IMG/VR virus record: IMGVR_UViG_2850808358_000014
Source of the DNA: a virus
Lineage: Duplodnaviria; Heunggongvirae; Uroviricota; Caudoviricetes
Length of the DNA stretch: 48,456 nucleotides
Direction: 5' to 3' (one strand)
The notes below the pieces were generated by a model. The model was given only the letters and a program-made list of their open reading frames with translations. It ran no database searches and was not told the origin of the DNA. Below are positions 1 to 48,456 of the stretch, piece by piece. Position 1 is the first letter of the stretch; each line of letters opens with the position of its first letter. A program made the translations under genes and the position numbers.

Positions 1-1011
1 GTGTTCACGAAAACAGCGCAGCTCTGGCATAACGCCACGCCGCATCCGCACTGGTGCGGCCTGACCCTGCTGGCCATCGATGGTGTGTTCTGGCGCACAC
101 CGGATACACCAGAGAACGATGCAGCCTTCCCCCGCCAGACACATGCCGGGAACCCGGCGCTCTACCCGCAGGTCAAAATGGTCTGCCAGATGGAACTGAC
201 CAGCCATCTGCTGACGGCTGCAGCCTTCGGCACGATGAAGAACAGCGAAAATGAGCTTGCTGAGCAACTTATAGAACAAACCGGCGATAACACTCTGACG
301 TTAATGGATAAAGGTTATTACTCACTGGGACTGTTAAATGCCTGGAGCCTGGCGGGAGAACACCGCCACTGGATGATACCTCTCAGAAAGGGAGCGCAAT
401 ATGAAGAGCTCAGAAAACTGGGTAAAGGCGATCATCTGGTGAAGCTGAAAACCAGCCCGCAGGCACGAAAAAAGTGGCCGGGACTGGGAAATGAAGTGAC
501 AGCCCGCCTGCTGACCGTGACGCGCAAAGGAAAAGTCTGCCATCTGCTGACGTCGATGACGGACGCCATGCGCTTCCCCGGAGGAGAAATGGCGGATCTG
601 TACAGTCATCGCTGGGAAATCGAACTGGGATACAGGGAGATAAAACAGACGATGCAACTGAGCAGGCTGACGCTGAGAAGTAAAAAGCCGGAGCTTGTGG
701 AGCAAGAGCTGTGGGGTGTCTTACTGGCTTATAATCTGGTGAGATATCAGATGATTAAAATGGCGGAACATCTGAAAGGTTACTGGCCGAATCAACTGAG
801 TTTCTCAGAATCATGCGGAATGGTGATGAGAATGCTGATGACATTGCAGGGCGCTTCACCGGGACGTATACCGGAGCTGATGCGCGATCTTGCAAGTATG
901 GGACAACTTGTGAAATTACCGACGAGAAGGGAAAGGGCCTTCCCGAGAGTGGTAAAGGAGAGGCCCTGGAAATACCCCACAGCCCCGAAAAAGAGCCAGT
1001 CAGTTGCTTAA
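1..1011 (+). CDS. insG: IS4 transposase InsG, C-terminal 336 aa (5' end cut by window edge)
   Basis: ORF translation matches the E. coli IS4 transposase C-terminus as I recall it ([17 protein letters not shown] ... KKSQSVA); the GTG at position 1 is an edge artefact. Confidence 0.92.
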
Positions 1012-1024
1012 CTGACTGGCATTA
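1..1024 (+). mobile_element. IS4 insertion sequence, right-hand ~1 kb (left part outside window)
   Basis: Carries the 3' 1011 bp of the IS4 transposase gene; the ~18 bp after the stop (about 1007-1024) read as an IS4-type terminal inverted repeat, then AT-rich non-IS DNA. Confidence 0.8.
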
Positions 1025-1295
1025 ACCGTAAGGGTTGGTTTTTTCTTGGCACGAGAGTAGTTTAATTGACCGTGTAACCGCATGATTTTAATCAATATTA
1101 TTGATTCAACTTTTAAACCGTATAACCAAACGTATAACTAAAATAATTTGCTGAAAAAATGCACAATTTAAACGGCGATTGCCCTAGCGACTTCCATGAT
1201 TCTACCTGGATTTTTTTTCGCTCATTCGTTTTTAAGCTGGTGGATGTTCCCCGATATGGGGATCACCACCTACCGGAATTTTTGCCAGGTTATAT

Positions 1296-2289: not shown

Positions 2290-2674
2290 TTACCGCCGTA
2301 AGTGCTCCGGCTTCCTCCACTGGTAAGTATTTTTCGCGCTCTCCCTCCGTTGTTGAGAACGGCGACGATATGCCAGCAACTCAAGGACTCTTGTTCGTAT
2401 GTTGCGCATATCCACGCCGTTAAGCTCAATACCGTCACGGCGCATCACCTCAGCCACCACACGCGCGTAATTTTCAGCGGTGACGCTGTCCGGCTGCGTG
2501 GCCACCTGTTTGCCTGTTGCCTGACAGATTCCGGTAATACGGCGGATTACTTTCAGTAGTTCGGCGTCGGTCATGGTTATGGTTTCCATAGTGATGGGGG
2601 AACAATTTCTGTAATCTGCGAAGCTGGCGATCGGTCAGACTCAAATGCCTGGCAACTTCAGTCTGAGTAGCCAC
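2290..2674 (-). CDS. small HTH DNA-binding protein, reading frame apparently disrupted
   Basis: GTG-start ORF with SD GAGGTG (N-terminus MATQTEVARHLSLTDRQLRRL, HTH-like) overlaps a 99-aa ORF in another frame; the first frame ends in a His/Arg-rich tail. Confidence 0.45.
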
Positions 2675-2749
2675 TGTTCACCTCGCCCAAAAATCTCCCC
2701 TCATGCGTTTTAAACATGCATCTTGCGAACAACTTTATGAAACGCGGCA

Positions 2750-2850
2750 TATATGTCCGGTTTGAGTGTTCAATTTTTGCGCATGTCCGGTTCGCAGAAA
2801 GCGCATTTCTATATTTTTCAAATGGTTAACCTTCAGAGAAACCGGACATG
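2750..2850 (-). promoter_or_regulatory. promoter/operator region upstream of the HTH gene with three ATGTCCGGTT repeats
   Basis: Two direct copies and one inverted copy between the terminator at about 2940 and the gene start at 2674. Confidence 0.4.
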
Positions 2851-2932
2851 GTTTCCGAAAAATTTTCATAAATAGTGAAATTCTGCGCCGCTCCCGCCCC
2901 GTGGCAGGCCACCCCACCGGAAGGACCCGCAA

Positions 2933-2962
2933 AAAAAAGCCGGATTTCTCCGGCCTTTTCTC
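2933..2962 (-). terminator. rho-independent terminator after the 137-aa gene
   Basis: On the minus strand, GCCGGA-loop-TCCGGC hairpin followed by a run of 8 U. Confidence 0.6.
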
Positions 2963-3374
2963 AGATGGTTTTCAGTATGCGATCGATTTCGCCGTCATCA
3001 CCCTGATATCTGCCATCGTATGCCATGCCAGGGCTTACGGCCTGCGGGCTGTGCATGTCCATAAAGTTTTCAAAGGCTGCGGTAAGCTCCGGCGCAACCT
3101 TCGGGCGTTCCTGCTCTATGGTCATGTTCAGGATTTCCCGGGCATTATCGACGCTAATACATGGCACGTTTGCCATTGCACGTAACAGCGGCTGATAGTC
3201 GTCAGATTCATGAAGCGCCATAATCGCATCAGTGCGCGGCTTGTCCTGCTCTTCCAGTTTGTTAAGTTGATATATAGCCTCGTAGGTTGATAAACCTCTG
3301 TCCGCCATTGCCCGCGCTTCGGCTTTAAATTTACTCGCCAGCGGTAGCGCCATGATAGCTTCATTGATTGCCAT
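2961..3374 (-). CDS. hypothetical protein, 137 aa, last gene of the capsid operon
   Basis: Intact ORF directly downstream of the gpD-like gene and followed by a terminator; no family recognised. Confidence 0.6.
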   Translation of the reverse strand: MAINEAIMALPLASKFKAEARAMADRGLSTYEAIYQLNKLEEQDKPRTDAIMALHESDDYQPLLRAMANVPCISVDNAREILNMTIEQERPKVAPELTAAFENFMDMHSPQAVSPGMAYDGRYQGDDGEIDRILKTI

Positions 3375-3386
3375 CGTTCCCCCTGC

Positions 3387-3676
3387 TTATCGCACCAGTG
3401 GCTGAACGGATACGCCAGAACCCGCAAAAGCGGCGCATTTTTTCGCGTCGGTGTCGACGCTCTCGGGCCAGTTAACGGCGGCGATATTAAATATCCCCGT
3501 CTTGTAACACTGTGCTGATTTCTGCTTTGACGTGTCCACGGGTACGCCGTCAGATAAACAGCCTTGCCAGATTCCTGACCATCCCACGCCTTAAACTCGC
3601 CATTGTCCGCCAGCATCAGCGGAAAAATGTACCAGCGTCGTGGCAACCTGCTGTGTGCCTGCATATAACTCAACAT
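3387..3676 (-). pseudogene. lambda gpD-like head decoration protein, frameshifted
   Basis: Two overlapping ORF fragments; joined they read ...EFKAWDGQESGKAVYLTAYP|VDTSKQ...KKCAAFAGSGVSV, which resembles the lambda gpD core (KLVAWDG...KKRTAFAGTAISIV); the break is at a C run near 3541. Confidence 0.6.
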
Positions 3677-3700
3677 ATGGAGTGCCCATAGAATCTCCCG

Positions 3701-4756
3701 TTAACCAATTTTCACAGTAACAAATTTGCGGATATCTGCCGGAACCGGCTGCGGTGCGCTGTGCGTCTGCACGTACTCAATCGCCGGATCGCCGCTCTCA
3801 ATCCAGTTTTTCGGGTAGTACATGTTTTGCGTTGCGCCCGTTCTTACCGCTTCCGGATCCATAATCGCGCCATAGGCCACCAGACCTTTATTGCTGGTGT
3901 TGCCCAGGACAAGCAAATCAGGCTCAAGGAAATATTTTTCGGTGCCGTCGCTGTCGGTGTATTTGCCGGAATAGACGATAAGGGCCAGATCACCCAGATA
4001 GCCTTTAAAGCTCACCACTTCGCCCAGGTTTTTACACGCCAGCTCTGCGGCGGATTCTGAACCACGGGAAAGATCGTACAGCTCGCGGAATTTTTTAAAG
4101 CTACGTAAGGTGCGCCATACGTCAGCGCCCATAATCATGACGTTGGCGGGGCAGCTGGCCTGTTCGGCGTATAGCTCGATGTCATCTGTCGGATCATGCG
4201 TCTCTTTATTCTGCTCAGACCATTTTTTTCCTGGCCCCTGATGGACAATGCAGTTTGCCGGCATATTCCAGTCGATTTCATAGCGTTCTATGCCTTCGCC
4301 TTCAATGATGTTTTTTCCGGTCGTGACCGCATTCACTGCCAGCCATTCCACACGCGCTTTAATGGCGTTTATCTGGCGGCGCATGTTGCCAGTAATGAGG
4401 CGCATACGTCGCCAGGTGGGGTCGTTAAGCAGTGCCGGATCTTCTCCAGCCATGCGCATGATGGTTTTTGATGGATCGATTTCGTGTTTGGGTTTCATGT
4501 AGCCAGGGCGGATAGTGCTTGTTTCGTACCCTTTATCACGCTGAACCTGGCTACCCACCACAGGCGAACAAAACGCCGACATGGTGACTTCTTCAATGTC
4601 CAGGGTATCCAGCATGACATCTTGTGTGTTGAAGGTTGCTACTTTCGGGAAAAACAGCGTGGTAAACAGCGGACTGAATTTAAATTCCGGGATATCCCCG
4701 CGATTCAGGTACGCGAAAAGCTGGTTAGTGTTAAGTGCCGTTGCTTTGTCTGCCAT
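3701..4756 (-). CDS. lambda gpE-like major capsid protein, 351 aa
   Basis: Collinear similarity to lambda E as recalled (PGYMKPKHE, DPTDDIE, KGYLGD, YPKNW motifs) and near-identical length. Confidence 0.85.
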   Translation of the reverse strand: MADKATALNTNQLFAYLNRGDIPEFKFSPLFTTLFFPKVATFNTQDVMLDTLDIEEVTMSAFCSPVVGSQVQRDKGYETSTIRPGYMKPKHEIDPSKTIMRMAGEDPALLNDPTWRRMRLITGNMRRQINAIKARVEWLAVNAVTTGKNIIEGEGIERYEIDWNMPANCIVHQGPGKKWSEQNKETHDPTDDIELYAEQASCPANVMIMGADVWRTLRSFKKFRELYDLSRGSESAAELACKNLGEVVSFKGYLGDLALIVYSGKYTDSDGTEKYFLEPDLLVLGNTSNKGLVAYGAIMDPEAVRTGATQNMYYPKNWIESGDPAIEYVQTHSAPQPVPADIRKFVTVKIG

Positions 4757-4962
4757 TATTCACCCTCATGAGTCTGATTCATGCCAAGCGCCGCACGTAA
4801 ATAGGCGCGTACCTGCCAGCCTGTTGACGGCTCAACCATCGCCAGCGGATCAAGTCCTGCCGCAATGCCCGCTTTTACGTTCTGCTGGTGGCGTTCCTTG
4901 AGCGCCTCCACGATATCGGGGCTTATGTAAACTGTCACCCCGCCTTTTTTCTCTTCTGTCAT
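4756..4962 (-). CDS. hypothetical protein, 68 aa, translationally coupled to the capsid gene
   Basis: Its stop overlaps the capsid ATG (TAATG); no family recognised. Confidence 0.5.
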   Translation of the reverse strand: MTEEKKGGVTVYISPDIVEALKERHQQNVKAGIAAGLDPLAMVEPSTGWQVRAYLRAALGMNQTHEGE

Positions 4963-4991
4963 AGTCAGAAATTCCTTTTCGACTTAAAAAA

Positions 4992-5019
4992 TTATAACTG
5001 GATGTACATCCAGTTATAA
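4992..5019. promoter_or_regulatory. perfect ~27-bp palindrome TTATAACTGGATGTACATCCAGTTATAA upstream of the capsid operon
   Basis: Perfect dyad with a CTGG-N8-CCAG core about 30 bp upstream of the 68-aa gene; candidate operator. Confidence 0.45.
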
Positions 5020-5139
5020 TTATAATCATAGTTGCATTTTGTGCAATAGAATTGAGTTGCATTGCAAATTATGAAATGATTTACGGCAACAGTAGTCACC
5101 ATGCTGTTAACCTCGTAAGCAAAAGCCCGATAAGCTTCC

Positions 5140-5196
5140 TCCTGTACTTATCGGGCTTTTTTTGGGTACAAAAAGCCGGATTTTCTCCGGCCTGTG
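5140..5196. terminator. pair of hairpin plus T-run terminators (bidirectional)
   Basis: CCCGATAAG...CTTATCGGG followed by T7 on plus; GCCGGA-TTTTC-TCCGGC followed by U-run on minus, almost identical to the hairpin near 2940. Confidence 0.5.
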
Positions 5197-5199
5197 CGT

Positions 5200-5610
5200 T
5201 CAGAACGGAATATCATCACCGTAGGGGTCATCGTCTCCCGCTGGTGGCTGATTACCCTGTGTGCCTGTGGTTTTGCGTCTGTTCCCGCCAGGGCGTGCCG
5301 CTCGGGCACTGATTACGCTGTCGGCAATAACCTGATAACCCTGCCGCGTTTCCCCGTTCTGTCCGGTCCACTGGCTGACCTGCATCGTGCCGGATACGCT
5401 GGCAACGTCGCCTTTTTGATGTTTAGCCAGGAAGTCGGCCTGCTTACCAAATGCCATCACCGATAGCCATAACGTCGCCTGTCCGTCCTGTGCCTGGCTG
5501 CATGGCAGCGATACCGCCATACGCGCCAGCGTCATCGGTGTGCCCTTGCTGGTCTGTTTTACCTGCGGGTCGTCCACCAACCGTCCGTAAGCTGCTATCT
5601 GTGCTGTCAT
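5200..5610 (-). CDS. ssb: single-stranded DNA-binding protein (short phage/plasmid type)
   Basis: OB-fold-like N-terminus, Gly/Gln-rich linker and acidic C-terminal tail ending DDDPYGDDIPF. Confidence 0.85.
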   Translation of the reverse strand: MTAQIAAYGRLVDDPQVKQTSKGTPMTLARMAVSLPCSQAQDGQATLWLSVMAFGKQADFLAKHQKGDVASVSGTMQVSQWTGQNGETRQGYQVIADSVISARAARPGGNRRKTTGTQGNQPPAGDDDPYGDDIPF

Positions 5611-5885
5611 GATTCCACCTCTCCGGTTTTAACGTTGATGGTTGTTACCTGTTCCGCTTCGGCAATCTCCCGTTCTGTCAGCGTGGCAAAGTTTGCCGCT
5701 GCTGTGGTCATGAATGCGCTTATCAGGTCGGGATGTTCCTTCGCGTATCCTTCCCCCGCGTGGCGGTCTATCGTTCTGATTGCCACCTTTAAAGCGTGCT
5801 CTGTCATGTCTAACGCGCGATATTTCGGTTCTGTTCTGTCTCTGCGTTTTTTGAGTGATTTATTAAATTTTCCTGAAGTGTGCAT
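5607..5885 (-). CDS. hypothetical protein (92-aa ORF; true start may be internal)
   Basis: ORF between the origin and ssb; no family recognised. Confidence 0.45.
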   Translation of the reverse strand: MHTSGKFNKSLKKRRDRTEPKYRALDMTEHALKVAIRTIDRHAGEGYAKEHPDLISAFMTTAAANFATLTEREIAEAEQVTTINVKTGEVES

Positions 5886-5929
5886 GTTTATTTTTACCCC
5901 CTCGTTTAAAAAGTTTTGAGTTGTGCCTC

Positions 5930-6160
5930 CCCTTGTCTACCTTATCTACCTTGCTGGCCCTCATGCCAGTAATGGCGCGGCTTTCAGCGGGTAGAGTGTT
6001 TTTATCCACTATCTACCCCGTGTCTACCTCCCTGTCTGATTCAGGTAAAATCAGGTAGAGAGGGTAGATAGTGGGTAGACAGTAAAAAAAAGCTGTCTAC
6101 CTAACTTAATGTACTGAATTAAATGTATTTTCCTTTGCTCAGGTAGACAGCAATTACAAA
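5930..6160. repeat. replication origin: about 10 iterons of consensus YNTCTACC in both orientations plus an AT-rich stretch
   Basis: TTGTCTACC, TTATCTACC, CTATCTACC, GTGTCTACC, CTGTCTACC and inverted GGTAGAG/GGTAGAT/GGTAGAC copies directly 3' of the primase gene. Confidence 0.6.
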
Positions 6161-6163
6161 AAA

Positions 6164-7917
6164 TTATAAAAACGCGTCGCACTCGTCTGTTGTTATTGCG
6201 TTAGTCTGCGTTACCCCCTTAACTTTCCGCGTAATATATTCATGTCCGTAAACTTTTGCGGCAGGCTTCATAGCCTTGCCAAAGTCATTTACGTTTAGCG
6301 GTTTGCTCCTGCCTGCGTATGCCATAAACGCCAGATAGACGCGGTAAAGGCTGTTCCTGGTCGTGTACTTCACTGAATCACCACCGCCACCCATCATCAG
6401 GCCGCGCGCTTCCTCCAGAAAATTCAGGAACTGGCAAAACTCAATAACCGGATCCGTCTGTTGCTTTATTGCCAGTGCTTCATCACCGTCACGCTGTTCC
6501 AGTAGTAAAGCCCGTGCCTTCTCAGGGTCGGTAAAGTTCGCCAGCAATCGGCGGATAATAACGGGGATTTCAGCCGCAATCTTTTCCGGTAGCTCCCTGT
6601 CTTTTTCGGCCTCACTGACGATATTGTCGAAACGGAAAATCACGCGACGACGTGCCACACCTCCGGCCCGTTCGGTGAATATCATCGGGTTGTTGTCGGT
6701 CGCCAGCACCACCGCCCTGATTACCGCCGTGAAACGCTTTTCATATTTCGGGTTAATTTCCACGGGTCGCCGCCCGTGATTTTCTTGATGCCCGTTCCTT
6801 CGCCTGTATATTTCGGCTGGTCAGCCAGGACGATAAGACGACTCCCGACAACCTGCGCACGTCCACCAGCATCATCAAGCGATGTCATTTCAGCGCTTAC
6901 CGTGTTCTGTTTCCCTGCCAGAAGGCTGGCTATGTGTGTGAATGTACTTTTACCGCTCCCGCCGTCTCCGGTGGCCTCAATAAACATCTGCCAGTCGTAC
7001 CGGTTCGCCATAATCATGTAAAGCGCGGCACATATGCGCATCATCTTGCGCGGGTCTTTTCCGGCTGCGTGATCAAGCCATTTATGAAAGTTTGGCGCGT
7101 TGTCGCGGATATTCTCCCCTGGTGCTGGTGGCGTGTACTCAATGCCGTTGTGCGTGGTGATCCAGTTCTCCGGCGTGTGCGGGGAAAATTCCCCCGTTTT
7201 CAGGTTAAGCACACCATTAGTGAACGGTAGCAAATCACTGGACGGCTCGCCCATCGGGTCAGCAATAACTTTTAACGCTTCAACGGCGTTATTAATTGCC
7301 CGCTTGCTGAATGTGGCCCCGTGTTCTGAATAAACCGCCACCATTTCGCGGCTCAGTTCCATTGTGCTGACCGGACACCATATCCCGCCGCGCCATACGT
7401 GAACGATTTCACTTTCCGGATGCACACAAACGCCATCAAATCGACCAGCAAGCATCTGTGCGCGCTCACTGTCTGCCATCTGCGAAAGTTGCGCCTTTTG
7501 CTTTACCGGAAGCTCAATGACCAGACCATCAGAAAGATTCTGGCGTTCACGGGCCAGATATTCGCGCCAGTTCTGCACCTCCTGGCCGTGCATACCCTCA
7601 AGATAAAAATTTGCATCCTGTACACCTGCCGCCGCCAGCTTCTGACCAATCGCCTTGATCATTACAGGCTCAAGATGTCCGGCTCTGTATATGCGTGCTG
7701 ATTTTCTGCCATCCGGCACAATTTGCAGATTATCCAGTTCGGATAGCTGCTGCTCTCCAAGCCACACAGGAGGCTCATTATCTCCGGCTGTACGCGCGTC
7801 ATGTTCCTGCCACTGTTTCGCGTGTGCCCAGGCATCACTACCCGCAAAGATAATTACCTCTGTGTCTTTGTGTTTTATTCCGCGTGGCTGTTTTTTTACG
7901 TTCGGTGCCAGTTTCAT
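6164..7917 (-). pseudogene. P4-family primase/helicase, frameshifted
   Basis: 398-aa fragment with toprim-like N-terminus and Walker A GDGGSGKST, plus a 199-aa fragment in another frame; the join ...ITGGDP|VEINPKYEK falls at a G/C run near 6765. Confidence 0.75.
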
Positions 7918-8213
7918 TTTTTACCCCTGAATACGTTAAGCATCTTTTTTATTTCCTGAATATTGGCGCGTGCTTTCTCCCTGCTGGTGGGCACGTTACG
8001 CGGTACGGCCTGCACAAGAGAAAAATCACGGTCGAACTGATAAACAGGCATCACGCAATCATATTCGTAGCCTTCACGACGGTAGGTTACGCGCCGTTCC
8101 TCCACGCCCTTAATTATTACCGTGCCGCCGTACTTATCGCGGTAAATATCCCCGCGCATGAATTTAGTGCGAGTTTTGCCGCTGGCAGTTAAGCCAGGAT
8201 ATTTAAGTTTCAT
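7914..8213 (-). CDS. hypothetical protein, 99 aa
   Basis: Intact ORF whose stop overlaps the primase start; no family recognised. Confidence 0.5.
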   Translation of the reverse strand: MKLKYPGLTASGKTRTKFMRGDIYRDKYGGTVIIKGVEERRVTYRREGYEYDCVMPVYQFDRDFSLVQAVPRNVPTSREKARANIQEIKKMLNVFRGKK

Positions 8214-8218
8214 TATTT

Positions 8219-8452
8219 TTATTCTCCGGTGTGGGGCGCTTTATACTGGTCGTGTAATGTCTCTATTTCCTGCAACTCATTTATTACAGGCTCAAGAAGC
8301 GTTATTAATGCCGTGACAATCCTTGATTTCTGTTTATCACGCTCATTATCGCCAAATGTTTCCAGACACATTTGCAATATTTCCAACATATTTTCACTGT
8401 GAGAAAGTGCAAGAAATGCGCGGTCTGTTATTTCAATGTAAATATCACGCAT
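8219..8452 (-). CDS. hypothetical protein, 77 aa (AT-rich)
   Basis: Intact ORF abutting the IS110-family left end. Confidence 0.5.
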   Translation of the reverse strand: MRDIYIEITDRAFLALSHSENMLEILQMCLETFGDNERDKQKSRIVTALITLLEPVINELQEIETLHDQYKAPHTGE

Positions 8453-8459
8453 AACCCCG

Positions 8460-28199: not shown

Positions 28200-29514
28200 T
28201 TATTCACCTCCACATGCCCCTCCAGTATGTCAATCATCCCGTCAGCAATCGCGGCTTCAAGCGACAGTGCAGATACGCGGCTGATACTGACCAGCACATC
28301 CGCCCAGTCATTCTGTTTGCTGACAGCCTGCGATGTTCTGACCACAACTTTTGCAGTGCCGTCGCGGGTTGCCACAACATACAGCAACTGGTGGTTCTCC
28401 CTGTCCCACAATACCGCCTGTGGTTTTGCCATCAGCGACGGCAGACGCTGTAAATCTTCCGGTTTCAGGGCGGCATCAGCAGTGGTCGCCAGACTTTTCC
28501 CGTTCATTACAAGCAAACGGGCTGGCATATTCCCGGTGCGCTGATATACGGCTTCAGCCACGGATCCCGTCATAAAACCCAGCGCCCGGATTTCATGACC
28601 GGCCTGACGTGATCCTGCCAGGCGTTTAAGCCAGAGGGAAAAAGCAAGCTGACGCTCCCGGCTGTTATTCAGTGTCTGCACAACCTGCTCACGCAGCTGC
28701 GCGTCGTGAATTTCCACCAGTTTTCGAATCAGTGCCTGATCCGTACCAAATGCCGCCGAACCAGGGTTATATGACCAGCCTACATCCGGCGTCATTTTTA
28801 CCCGACCGTTGTCAAATGTGGTTGACGATGTGCGGAAAATCTCTCCGGTGCTTTCATCCGTACCGGCATCCACTTCGCGGGTGTTCATGAATGACGCACC
28901 ATAACTGACCTGTAGCCCCAGTTCTTTCATGCGGGCCGCAGACACCGCCCGGACGCGACAGCGGCAGTTCCAGCCATTGGGCGGGTAATGCGTCTGCCAG
29001 AAAATGTCGTCATACCTGAAAACCATATTGTGCAGCCGCGCATGTTCCGGGCGTGTTCTGCCATCCATAACGGCAACATACTGCCAGTACGGGTACAAAT
29101 CTGCGGTATTCATCATCTGCGCATAACGTCCTGCCCCATACGCCGTACGGGTATTGACGTTATAAATGGTTGCCAGACGACGCGGACTGCCCAGCTCGAT
29201 TACCTTTGCGTTTCCCTCTGCATCCACGATGATTTGTTTTCCCCACCATCCGAGTTTTTGCAACCGGGGGCCAGTGTGCGGGTAAATTCCTCACGGGTGA
29301 TGCCTTCACTGACAGCCCGCTCCACTTCCTCACGGATTGTGGTCAGGACATCCATCCGGGTGGCTTTGGCAACGGTAAAGGCGCGGGCGTGCGCGTCTGC
29401 CAGTTGTTCGTACCAGTTCCAGGTGATGTTGTAGCCTTTGGCGCGGAAATACGCGACAGCCTCCTTTGGCGGGAGGCGTGCGGCATACGCCAGATCAATG
29501 GTCTGCTGCGGCAT
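28196..29514 (-). pseudogene. F: MuF-like head morphogenesis protein F (gp30), frameshifted
   Basis: N-terminal and 355-aa C-terminal fragments; join ...TRTLAP|RLQKLGWWGKQ at a G/C run near 29268. Confidence 0.85.
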
Positions 29515-45830: not shown

Positions 45831-45835
45831 GCCAG
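45831..45835. repeat. GCCAG target-site duplication, copy 2
   Basis: Identical to 8883-8887. Confidence 0.8.
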
Positions 45836-46830
45836 CTACCATCGGTGCGTTACCTGTCGCCGTTGCCCGCTCAGAAGGAGTCCTTGTCGGATACCTCCCT
45901 GGACTGGCCATGCGCCGCATAGCCGACTTACACGCCGGTGAAGCTAAAACTGATGCTCGTGACGCTGCCATCATTGCCGAAGCTGCCCGTACCCTGCCTC
46001 ACGCGCTACGCACGCTGAAACTGGCTGACGAGCAAATCGCCGAACTCTCCATGCTCTGCGGCTTCGATGATGATCTTGCCGCACAGACAACGCAGGCCAG
46101 CAACCGTATCCGCGGCCTTCTGACCCAGATACATCCGGCACTGGAGCGCGTTCTCGGTCCGAGACTTGAGCACCCGGCGGTACTCGATCTTCTCCAGCGA
46201 TATCCCTCACCAGAAAAACTCGCTTCGCTGGGTGAGAAGAAGCTGGCAGCCCAGCTCTGCAAACTTGCGCCTCGTCTGGGTAAACGCCTTGCAGCAGACA
46301 TAGCTCAGGCACTGGCCGAACAAACCGTCGTCGTTCCCGGCACGAATGCCGCTGCCGTAGTACTGCCACGTCTGGCACTCCAGCTCATCACGCTGCGTAA
46401 GCAAAGAGACGAGGTGGCGCTTGAGGTAGAACAGCGAGTTCTTGCTCACCCTCTTTACCCGGTCCTGACCAGTATGCCCGGAGTCGGTGTCAGGACCGCA
46501 GCCAGACTCCTCACCGAGGTCGCCTGCCGCGCCTTCGCCTCTGCCGCACATCTCGCTGCTTATGCTGGCCTTGCGCCGGTAACTCGGCGATCCGGCTCGT
46601 CAATACGCGGTGAGCATCTCTCGCGACGGGGTAATAAAGCTCTCAAACGGGCGTTGTTCCTGTTGGCCTTCGCCGCGCTCAGGGATCCGCTCTCCAGGGC
46701 TTACTACACCCGCAAAATGAGTCAGGGAAAACGACACAATCAGGCGCTTATCGCCCTGGCGAGACGACGCTGCGACGTTCTGTTCGCCATGATGCGCGAC
46801 GGGACTTTTTATACCCCGCAGGGGTCATAA
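45831..46830 (+). pseudogene. IS110-family transposase, C-terminal fragment (continues 8686-8887)
   Basis: In frame with the N-terminal fragment once Mu and one TSD copy are removed; about 60% GC. Confidence 0.85.
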
Positions 46831-46843
46831 CATGCTTGACAAC

Positions 46844-47065
46844 TTAATAGGGGCACCCCCCATTTTCACAATCAGCAACAAGAATATTTTTAGCGTCATT
46901 CAGCGACCGCGTTGCGATGTATCGGATACATTCCAGGGCGAACAATGTGTATTCTTCCCGTTCTTCCTTTCGTGCAAGCTCTGCTGTGCATTCAATATCA
47001 ATAAGCGCGTGCATCAGCGTAGTGAGTGCGGCGGCGGCTGCGTCCGGTGTGGTTTTATTGTGCAT
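46844..47065 (-). CDS. hypothetical protein, 73 aa
   Basis: Start overlaps the stop of the upstream gene (ATGCACAATAA); 3' end abuts the IS right end. Confidence 0.5.
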   Translation of the reverse strand: MHNKTTPDAAAAALTTLMHALIDIECTAELARKEEREEYTLFALECIRYIATRSLNDAKNILVADCENGGCPY

Positions 47066-47228
47066 AGGTTTCCCCCTGGCGAATACGGGCGACAAAAATC
47101 AGATGTGCGTGCGGCAGCTGCGCGCGGGCTTCGCGTTCAGTGGCTGCGGTAACGGTGAATATTGCAATGCTGTCTGTCAGGCACTGCATAAAGCGCCAGA
47201 CAAAGTAAGGGCGTGCGGATACAGCCAT
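47055..47228 (-). CDS. small protein, tandem paralog A (possibly Icd-like)
   Basis: 57 aa with WRF and TEREAR...FVARIRQG motifs; SD AAGGAG-N9-ATG. Confidence 0.5.
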   Translation of the reverse strand: MAVSARPYFVWRFMQCLTDSIAIFTVTAATEREARAQLPHAHLIFVARIRQGETYAQ

Positions 47229-47522
47229 GTGAAAGGCTCCTTTGCTTGATGTAAGGAGTCTCGCCAGCACGCTGTCAAACATGGTGGCGGGACGTAACAG
47301 GGTTGACAGACTGGCAGCAAAGAAACCAGCGAGCGCAAAGGCTCCCCCGTTACGCCCCGCCATAATGCGGGTATGGGTAGGTTTACGGACACAAAAAAAC
47401 CGCATATCGGAATGTAAGCGGCTGTCCGCTTTGCTATTCAGGCTGTCAAACCCGGTCGCCATGTGGGCGACGGGGGAAGAATACAGCCCCACGGTAATTT
47501 TTTGCAAGTTGTTTTTACGCAT
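47229..47522 (-). CDS. hypothetical protein reading in frame into paralog A (no stop as given)
   Basis: Start overlaps the paralog B stop (ATGCGTAA); may be a separate gene merged by a frame error. Confidence 0.4.
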
Positions 47523-47703
47523 GGCCAACCCCCTGACGAATACGGGCCGCGAATACAGCAACACAACCGGACGGGCAATGGTTACGCGCTTCGCGTTCAG
47601 TCCAGGCGGTGACGTGGATGATTTGGGACTCTGACGCACCAAAGGCGATAAAGCGCCAGAGAAAGGCGGTTTGAGAATGTACAAGGGTAGGGGTAGTAGC
47701 CAT
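47515..47703 (-). CDS. small protein, tandem paralog B (possibly Icd-like)
   Basis: 62 aa with WRF and TEREAR...FAARIRQG motifs; same SD spacing as paralog A. Confidence 0.5.
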   Translation of the reverse strand: MATTPTLVHSQTAFLWRFIAFGASESQIIHVTAWTEREARNHCPSGCVAVFAARIRQGVGHA

Positions 47704-47795
47704 GTCGGCAGCCTCCTTGATTGATGGAATGTAACCACCGCCGGAGGTCCTAAGCTCGCTGGCGGTGGACTGTACAGGGTTAGGACTACTGGCAA

Positions 47796-48053
47796 TCAAG
47801 GGAACCAGCCTACCCGAAGGTAGCCCCATACAGCCCACCATTGTATAGGTGTGCGTGTGCGTCGATACAAAAAAGACGCGTGCGGCGTCTGTATCGCCTC
47901 GATTGTCAGCGGGGTCCTAATCCCGGCACCCGTTTTATAAGGTGCACGCGAATCATAGCCTTGGCTGGCAGTGGCGATCAACTGGTTTTTCATACCCGCT
48001 TTATTCAGGTTGTGCGAGTCCCGCCCTTGCAGGTGTGTGGTATGATTTAACAT
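47796..48053 (-). CDS. hypothetical protein, 85 aa, first gene of the leftward operon
   Basis: Internal Met of a longer tracked ORF; lies just downstream of the operator region. Confidence 0.5.
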   Translation of the reverse strand: MLNHTTHLQGRDSHNLNKAGMKNQLIATASQGYDSRAPYKTGAGIRTPLTIEAIQTPHASFLYRRTRTPIQWWAVWGYLRVGWFP

Positions 48054-48054
48054 A

Positions 48055-48258
48055 GCTACCTCGATACTGTTGCTATCGTTGGTGGTTAGACGCCCTGCAT
48101 GTGTTGCGAGCACTGCGGGGCGTTGCTTAATTTGAGTGACAAAACTCAAACTGTGCGCACAGATTAAAATCATGTGTGCGCACATGTCAATACTTAACAT
48201 CTCATTTTTTTTGCTGTATTGTGTGCGCCCATAAAGTCCATTTAAGTGAGGTGCATCA
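48055..48258. promoter_or_regulatory. divergent promoter/operator region with TGTGCGCACA palindromes
   Basis: CTGTGCGCACAG, CATGTGTGCGCACATG and a half-site TGTGTGCGC between the divergent genes. Confidence 0.5.
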
Positions 48259-48456
48259 ATGTCTAGCGGTAACACAAACAACAAATCAGCAAAGAAAAAT
48301 ATTCGATTCCCACATGAGCTTATAGATGGGGTTTATGCCAGCGTTGAACAAGAAAAATTAACTAATCCTAGTGCTAATTTTTCCGCATGGGTCTTAGATG
48401 CCTGTGGACGCAAATTAAAATATGAACAGCGCAGGAAGGCCAAAGAATCAGAATAA
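48259..48456 (+). CDS. small putative DNA-binding regulator, 65 aa
   Basis: Basic N-terminus; divergent from the operon across the palindromic operators; no family confidently recognised. Confidence 0.5.
   Translation: MSSGNTNNKSAKKNIRFPHELIDGVYASVEQEKLTNPSANFSAWVLDACGRKLKYEQRRKAKESE

Follow-up and report, generated by a model that had tools for sequence, protein, structure and literature searches.

We analysed a 48,456-nt stretch of DNA, referred to below as the window (IMG/VR virus record IMGVR_UViG_2850808358_000014), in which a preliminary description had placed a satellite-like element with its own lambda-type capsid and decoration genes at positions 2290-8454. Our results indicate that this element is very probably a classical, non-capsid-forming Gram-negative phage-inducible chromosomal island (PICI) of the EcCICFT073 type, which occupies the tRNA-Pro(GGG)/yejM-yejO site in CP026877.1, a chromosome assigned to Escherichia/Shigella by synteny and insertion-sequence load. 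It belongs to a described family and, within it, to a catalogued subgroup of the yejM site, and its architecture is already known, not new. For annotation of the block we used Pfam, PHROGs and NCBIfam scans together with tblastn searches with the E. coli CFT073 locus proteins. The flanks beyond the window were read in GenBank CP026877.1, which exact-protein look-ups showed to be the source and in which two loci match the window at 100%.

EcCICFT073 is the prototype of the Gram-negative PICIs (Fillol-Salom et al., 2018, ISME J; Fillol-Salom et al., 2019, Mol Cell). It carries a primase, a replication origin, an SSB, a gpE-like capsid gene and a gpD-like decoration gene in this order, and its products c1499 and c1500 are called capsid protein and head decoration protein, respectively (PMC6092414). 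Aligned with the EcCICFT073 locus, the window shows DNA identities of 87.6% (2866-5196) and 92.5% (5200-8453), about 5.6 kb in total being matched at 87-93%, and the protein-by-protein tblastn matches agree. The two elements share the gene order (DUF4222, Pri-Rep, iteron origin, SSB, 68-aa gene, capsid, decoration, 137-aa gene, last small gene), as well as unidirectional transcription and a lambda-type cosN. The following features were located in the replication and late blocks (positions are those of the window; ORF, open reading frame):

8219-8452, minus strand: 77-aa conserved PICI protein (CFT073 homology, PHROGs)
7914-8213, minus strand: DUF4222 protein of 99 aa (Pfam, CFT073 homology)
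6164-7917, minus strand: Pri-Rep primase-helicase of the P4/D5 family (D5_N, DUF5906 and Pox_D5 domains in Pfam), reading as two ORFs
5929-6150, no strand: replication origin directly 3' of the primase, with A+T-rich stretches flanked by two opposed sets of (R/C)TCTACC iterons
5607-5885, minus strand: 92-aa conserved protein (phrog_1231)
5200-5610, minus strand: SSB (Pfam and NCBIfam scans, CFT073 homology)
4756-4962, minus strand: 68-aa conserved protein, its stop codon overlapping the capsid start codon
3701-4756, minus strand: gpE-like major capsid protein, intact, 351 aa (Pfam Phage_cap_E, E=1.5e-48)
3387-3689, minus strand: gpD/SHP-like head decoration gene, a pseudogene with a 32-bp deletion and a 1-bp deletion at 3542
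2961-3374, minus strand: 137-aa helical repeat protein, c1501 homologue (88% identity to the CFT073 homologue)
2290-2589, minus strand: 99-aa protein, homologue of the last EcCICFT073 gene (67% identity; phrog_1561)

The gene inventory given in the preliminary description, all on one strand, thus stood in large part: Pfam and tblastn placed the primase, the SSB and an intact gpE-like gene on the minus strand, with the iteron origin among them. The gpD-like gene proved to be a pseudogene and the primase is split. The primase-helicase is 92-97% identical to the 584-aa Pri-Rep of EcCICFT073 and is read as ORFs of 398 aa and 199 aa because of a 1-bp deletion at 6766, where a copy with 99.93% identity over 7.4 kb has one C more. 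The position claimed for the origin, directly 3' of the primase, was borne out; eight of the ten RTCTACC matches in the whole 48-kb window fall within 5935-6148, in both orientations and accompanied by CTCTACC variants. This cluster lies in a non-coding stretch of about 280 bp and is found at the same place in CFT073. The homologous Pri-Rep/iteron-origin replicon of EcCICFT073 is functional (PMC6092414).

The same combination of genes, not recognised as a described family in the preliminary description, has been published as the architecture of EcCICFT073 (PMC6092414). Of 29 reference Gram-negative PICIs, 21 have a capsid gene (PMC10111431), and SatelliteFinder counts 'capsid morphogenesis' among the five core PICI components, the five-component PICIs being nearly all from E. 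coli (PMC10085698). We found the full-length capsid gene (at least 80% identity) in 598 of 5426 complete E. coli genomes (11%). The integration site is catalogued too: Table S1 of PMC6092414 lists yejM-site PICIs of 10.7-11.4 kb in E. coli ED1a (EcCIED1a.1), Shigella dysenteriae 1012 (SdCI1012) and S. boydii Sb227 (SbCISb227), along with EcCIATCC25922. By this listing they resemble the window element in integration site, in the att (attachment site) repeat TTT(G)TAGTTATACGTTTGGTTATACGG and in size (about 11.3 kb in the window element), and they differ from it in that the window copy holds about 40 kb of inserted insertion sequence (IS) and prophage DNA. In itself the element is of little weight: it adds a further decayed copy to a satellite family that is common and has been studied well.

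The extent of 2290-8454 first assigned to the element proved too narrow. The satellite runs from an att core at 1048-1057, is broken at about 8444, resumes at 46878 and continues through 48456 and off the end of the window. Its boundary in the window is marked by two sequences:

1048-1057, minus strand: att core CTCTCGTGCC, 10 bp, identical to the tRNA-Pro(GGG) 3' end at the other end of the element; right boundary of the satellite
1118-1143, minus strand: repeat TTTTAGTTATACGTTTGGTTATACGG, with a second copy next to int; this is the att sequence listed for the yejM-site PICIs (Table S1, PMC6092414)

Past the window end, CP026877.1 carries an alpA-like 68-aa gene, a second IS4, a broken int, tRNA-Pro(GGG) and yejM, so that in the source genome the element is flanked by yejO at one end and by integrase, tRNA-Pro and yejM at the other. 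A search beyond IS4 and the window end, as had been proposed, therefore yielded an integrase (pseudogene) and an att site, and no portal or terminase of the element. Once Mu, ISEc20 and the internal IS4 are subtracted, the att repeats lie about 11.3 kb apart. The att core is separated from the last conserved gene by about 1.2 kb (1058-2289) that lack a convincing ORF and vary among related PICIs; a 143-aa ORF called on the opposite strand in some assemblies looks non-coding.

Set against the hallmarks of Gram-negative PICIs (Fillol-Salom et al., 2018; SatelliteFinder PICI model), the element shows the following. A tyrosine integrase gene (pseudogene) adjoins tRNA-Pro(GGG) beyond the window, and the 10-bp core is repeated at the other end. 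The primase-replicase has its iteron origin directly 3', and the layout is unidirectional, with all conserved genes in 2290-8452 and 46844-48284 on the minus strand. A capsid-morphogenesis gene is present in the form of the gpE-like gene, and packaging is represented by a cos site, with terS reduced to a 24-codon stub and rppA absent. No tail, lysis, portal or connector genes of its own were found, and the native size of about 11.3 kb compares with the 10-20 kb expected. The candidate for AlpA is a 68-aa gene in the canonical place, with a Pfam Phage_AlpA match below the cut-off (E=0.0035) and 28% identity to the EcCICFT073 AlpA (E=2e-7). Helper-phage induction with high-frequency transfer is documented for EcCICFT073 only.

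According to the preliminary description, the window lacks portal, protease, terminase and tail genes. This holds for the satellite, and no head, tail or terminase genes belonging to the element were found between the att sites, in the window or in the CP026877.1 flanks. It does not hold for the window as a whole, where the Mu/SfMu-like prophage at 8888-45830 has all of them.

Differences from EcCICFT073 were also noted. The prototype occupies the phoQ-roxA interval and the window element tRNA-Pro/yejM; the window element is without rppA and without the PerC gene; and the window copy, unlike EcCICFT073, is disrupted by IS4, by ISEc20 with a Mu-like prophage and by gene lesions. A further difference concerns packaging, for which these features are relevant:

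2603-2929, minus strand: phage-derived cos segment; a lambdoid prophage of E. coli CFSAN029787 has a cos/terS region of 98.8% identity
2888-2899, minus strand: cosN-like GGGCGGGAGCGG, aligning with the lambda cohesive end
2842-2849 (inverted), 2783-2790 and 2753-2760, minus strand: three CCGGACAT sites, cosB-like, arranged like R3, R2 and R1
GTG at 2674, minus strand: Nu1-type terS stub of the first ~24 codons, phage-derived

EcCICFT073 is packaged by cos and helper TerS (PMC6092414), and its RppA retargets the helper TerS to the island's own cosB. There, two cosN-containing sequences in inverted orientation flank rppA (locus L001, 12624-13435). The window satellite has one cos site only by motif counts, tblastn with the CFT073 locus proteins gave no RppA match, and the single phage-like cos segment with its terS stub occupies the place of rppA and the two cos sites. 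The same arrangement is common to E. coli O121 strains. Judged by its cos segment, the window lineage would be packaged directly by a helper of matching cos specificity and would therefore exert no RppA-type interference. The yejM lineage may have replaced RppA-based retargeting by a captured helper cosB.

Following the steps published for the family, a lambdoid helper phage would trigger alpA expression, the island would excise through its own integrase, and Pri-Rep would replicate it from the iterons 3' of its gene. Helper terminase would then recognise and cut the island cos, and concatemers would enter helper-made, phage-sized heads with helper tails. At the step where EcCICFT073 uses RppA to retarget helper TerS to the island cosB, we infer that the window lineage would use its near-exact copy of a lambdoid cosN/cosB. 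This would be similar to the SaPIbov5-type cos SaPIs, in which the satellite bears the helper's own cos and is packaged by helper terminase. SaPIbov5 differs in being unrelated in sequence and host, and in having a capsid homologue, Ccm, that makes small capsids.

Several readings other than a classical PICI were weighed. The element might be what is left of a capsid-forming PICI (cf-PICI) after loss of the portal, protease, connector and terminase genes. cf-PICIs (EcCIEDL933 type) resemble it in the early half of int, alpA and primase, which is common to both kinds of PICI, and in encoding a capsid protein; moreover, the cf-PICI of strain ESDR8 has the SSB and early genes in common with it and an ISEc20 in the same region. 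However, cf-PICIs bear portal, protease, head-tail connector, HNH, TerS and TerL genes, and none of these (including a prohead protease or head-tail adaptor) was found between the att sites. The late half has the genes and order of intact classical PICIs with clean att ends, with no gap or scar where further head genes would sit. At the DNA level this half (about 2290-5200) found no counterpart in the ESDR8 locus, whereas the SSB and early genes did. The ESDR8 capsid gene is annotated at a different length, about 385 aa (compared by annotation only), and capsid trees part PICIs from cf-PICIs almost perfectly (PMC10085698). We therefore regard a cf-PICI origin as highly improbable, and the likeness to capsid-forming or capsid-remodelling satellites drawn in the preliminary description is unsupported.

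A P4-like satellite is suggested by the primase, which scores near the P4-family model (TIGR01613, 106.9 bits vs. a cut-off of 108.7), and by the presence of an integrase and an AlpA-like gene. Yet the ORFs scanned contained no homologue of Psu, Sid, Delta or Epsilon, the element matches EcCICFT073 in gene order and DNA, and the cos is of the lambda type and not of the P2/P4 type, which makes this reading extremely unlikely. Comparison with P4-like, PICI and cf-PICI elements thus left the classical PICI as the one that fits, with neither the psu-delta-sid/epsilon genes nor the cf-PICI head genes found.

Decay of a lambdoid prophage down to E, D and cos would account for capsid and decoration genes homologous to lambda E and D and for a cos segment 98.8% identical to that of a lambdoid prophage. 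Against this, the capsid protein is 90% identical to the PICI version vs. 43-45% to phage versions, the order here is E-D, the reverse of the phage D-E, and the flanks consist of PICI genes and att sites. The element is att-bounded at about 11.3 kb with the insertions removed, and the same compact element occurs in hundreds of genomes. The CP026877.1 flanks hold no ordinary lambdoid prophage; with yejO on one side, int, tRNA-Pro and yejM on the other and no head or tail module of the element, the earlier view of a phage satellite as opposed to a degraded lambdoid prophage was confirmed, and the latter is scarcely credible. A satellite family not yet described, for which nothing speaks beyond the non-recognition in the preliminary description, has next to no chance and is already refuted by literature and a catalogue entry that cover both the architecture and the att site.

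Some points tell against the assignment to the classical PICIs or qualify it. The identification of AlpA from sequence is weak. Induction, excision, replication and packaging of the element are all presumed by analogy with the prototype. The gene on which the packaging mechanism of the prototype is based, rppA, is absent, and the only guide to the putative packaging route is the cos segment. Sequencing errors, and no decay of the element, may account for the frameshift in the primase and for one of the two lesions in the decoration gene.

This module was examined gene by gene. The capsid protein is 90% identical to CFT073 c1499 (PDB 3BQW; match E=2e-217), and shows 43% identity to lambda gpE and only 43-45% to phage capsid proteins, and so is no recent capture. 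Compared with the intact 111-aa versions in CFT073 and at locus L011, the decoration pseudogene is without the 32 bp between two CCGCTGATGCTGGCG repeats and without one C at 3542, and its reading frame stops after about 32 codons; the intact relative matches phage 21 SHP and lambda gpD (PDB 1TD0, 1C5E). The third gene encodes the 137-aa protein, in which a motif of about 33 residues occurs in two copies, one of them absent from 93-aa variants. Its residues 49-118 match positions 416-484 of a 501-residue lambdoid S49 prohead protease, in the C-terminal region of that enzyme (39% identity, BLASTP E=2e-11, phrog_53 E=1e-9). The corresponding part of lambda gene C also gives rise to a product of its own, the assembly protein Nu3. 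Because of the match to the protease C-terminus and the position of Nu3 in the lambda C gene, the 137-aa protein is possibly scaffold-like, which we offer as a lead rather than a finding.

Other searches with the 137-aa protein returned little. It showed no detectable similarity to lambda Nu3 itself and no Pfam match at E up to 10, and an exhaustive HMMER search returned eight representatives only, one of them a 195-aa repeat protein (E=7.7e-5). The AlphaFold model, all-helical with a mean pLDDT of 68, had no significant counterpart in the PDB by Foldseek. Some records carry the PGAP label 'head-tail connector' for this protein; the label is unsupported by Pfam or NCBIfam models.

Among diverged PICIs, dN/dS values were 0.07-0.18 for the capsid gene, mostly 0.19-0.33 for the decoration gene (one pair at 0.61) and 0.18-0.36 for the 137-aa gene, with 0.11 for the primase. 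The first three form a late module that is typical of the family and subject to purifying selection. Low dN/dS therefore indicates that the module is maintained by selection, despite no laboratory phenotype: in EcCICFT073, deleting c1499 or c1500 altered neither lambda interference nor transfer, and all packaged DNA was phage-sized (PMC6092414). As the packaged DNA is phage-sized, EcCICFT073 makes no small capsids of its own.

What makes the module of interest is its conservation without a deletion phenotype in the prototype, and the likeness of the 137-aa protein to a prohead protease makes the three genes candidates for a joint role. It is rather unlikely, in our estimate, that classical EcCICFT073-type PICIs keep capsid, decoration and 137-aa genes as a shell set which is able, with some natural helper, to build or alter shells or to replace the helper capsid gene. 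If true, such a role would have been missed by the lambda, phi80 and phage-4 assays. Neither this idea nor that of a captured cosB was found in the PICI literature examined.

The copy in the window has been interrupted by large insertions:

1-1024, plus strand: right-hand part of IS4, in which the window begins; outside the satellite, in the yejO terminator, 99% identical to IS4 copies
8444-46877, plus strand: ISEc20 with a Mu-like prophage inside it, inserted DNA foreign to the satellite
~8444-8887 and 45831-46877, plus strand: the two parts of ISEc20, split by the prophage
8888-45830, within ISEc20: complete Mu/SfMu-like prophage of 36,943 bp with canonical Mu ends and a 5-bp duplication GCCAG

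Over its late region the prophage shares 99.1% identity with SfMu, and it is about 96% identical to Mu and D108; compared with the SfMu record, the G segment lies in the opposite orientation. The IS4 is accompanied by an 11-bp target duplication ACCCTTACGGT at 1025-1035, with the matching copy on the far side of the IS (locus L012), and sits twelve bases outward of the att core at 1048-1057, followed by yejO. Two inverted IS4 copies bracket most of the satellite, one at window positions 1-1035 and the other between alpA and the rest of the operon (locus L017, ~6856-8281).

The robust lesions are the int damage (a frameshift and a deletion of about 190 bp, common to a relative), the IS4 between alpA and the operon, the ISEc20/Mu insertion that separates the early half from the replication half, and the 32-bp deletion in the decoration gene, which is common to several assemblies. 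Because int is broken, IS4 parts alpA from the operon and ISEc20/Mu parts the regulatory from the replication and late half, the copy is almost certainly immobile, whether or not its single-base deletions are real.

Single-C deletions at 6766, 5991 and 3542 are of doubtful reality. Compared with SfMu, the adjacent prophage shows about 20 isolated single-base deletions, many of them in or next to G/C runs; seven fall in the 19-kb late region, where no insertions were seen. This suggests long-read assembly errors and not real pseudogenes. The split primase had been considered as real decay, and this was downgraded after the deletions associated with G/C runs were seen in the prophage. Further isolated single-base deletions relative to near-identical references lie at 29270, 23232, 18889, 17734, 36024, 35224, 41830 and other positions, and such deletions split many ORFs, among them the primase, Mu A and B and the IS4 transposase. 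Two cautions for annotation follow from this copy: a Mu-like prophage in an IS in a PICI can make the satellite look truncated, and single-base deletions, tending to G/C runs, mimic pseudogenes.

Some minor observations concern the small genes. An exact-protein look-up with the 99-aa ORF at 2290-2589 returned no match, probably because the start codon is called differently. A scan for promoters and terminators gave nothing above shuffled expectation. The 237-bp gap between the SSB and 68-aa genes contains a near-perfect 32-nt palindrome with a 14-bp stem (AATTATAACTGGATGTACATCCAGTTATAATT, 4990-5021), and a PerC gene occupies this position in other PICIs. CFT073 and ESDR8 have a 222-bp gene beside the 77-aa gene; the window satellite lacks it, the ISEc20 edge falling at that point (8453 junction).

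On the far side of ISEc20, the early and regulatory half of the satellite comprises the following:

46844-48456, minus strand: early/regulatory continuation of the satellite, resuming at 46878 after ISEc20
46844-47065, minus strand: 73-aa protein, 89% identical to a CFT073 early gene
within 46844-48456, minus strand: Icd/Ash-like ORF fragments
47280-47367 and 47758-47845, minus strand: two C4 antisense RNAs (Rfam, above gathering score)
47435-47484, minus strand: c4-a1b1 target element (Rfam, above gathering score)
47869-47945, minus strand: isrK (Rfam, above gathering score)
48259-48456, plus strand: start of a divergent DUF3950/YlcI gene, inside which the window ends

With C4 RNAs, a c4-a1b1 element and isrK lying among Icd/Ash-like fragments, this part of the PICI is a predicted regulatory region similar to immI of phage P1.

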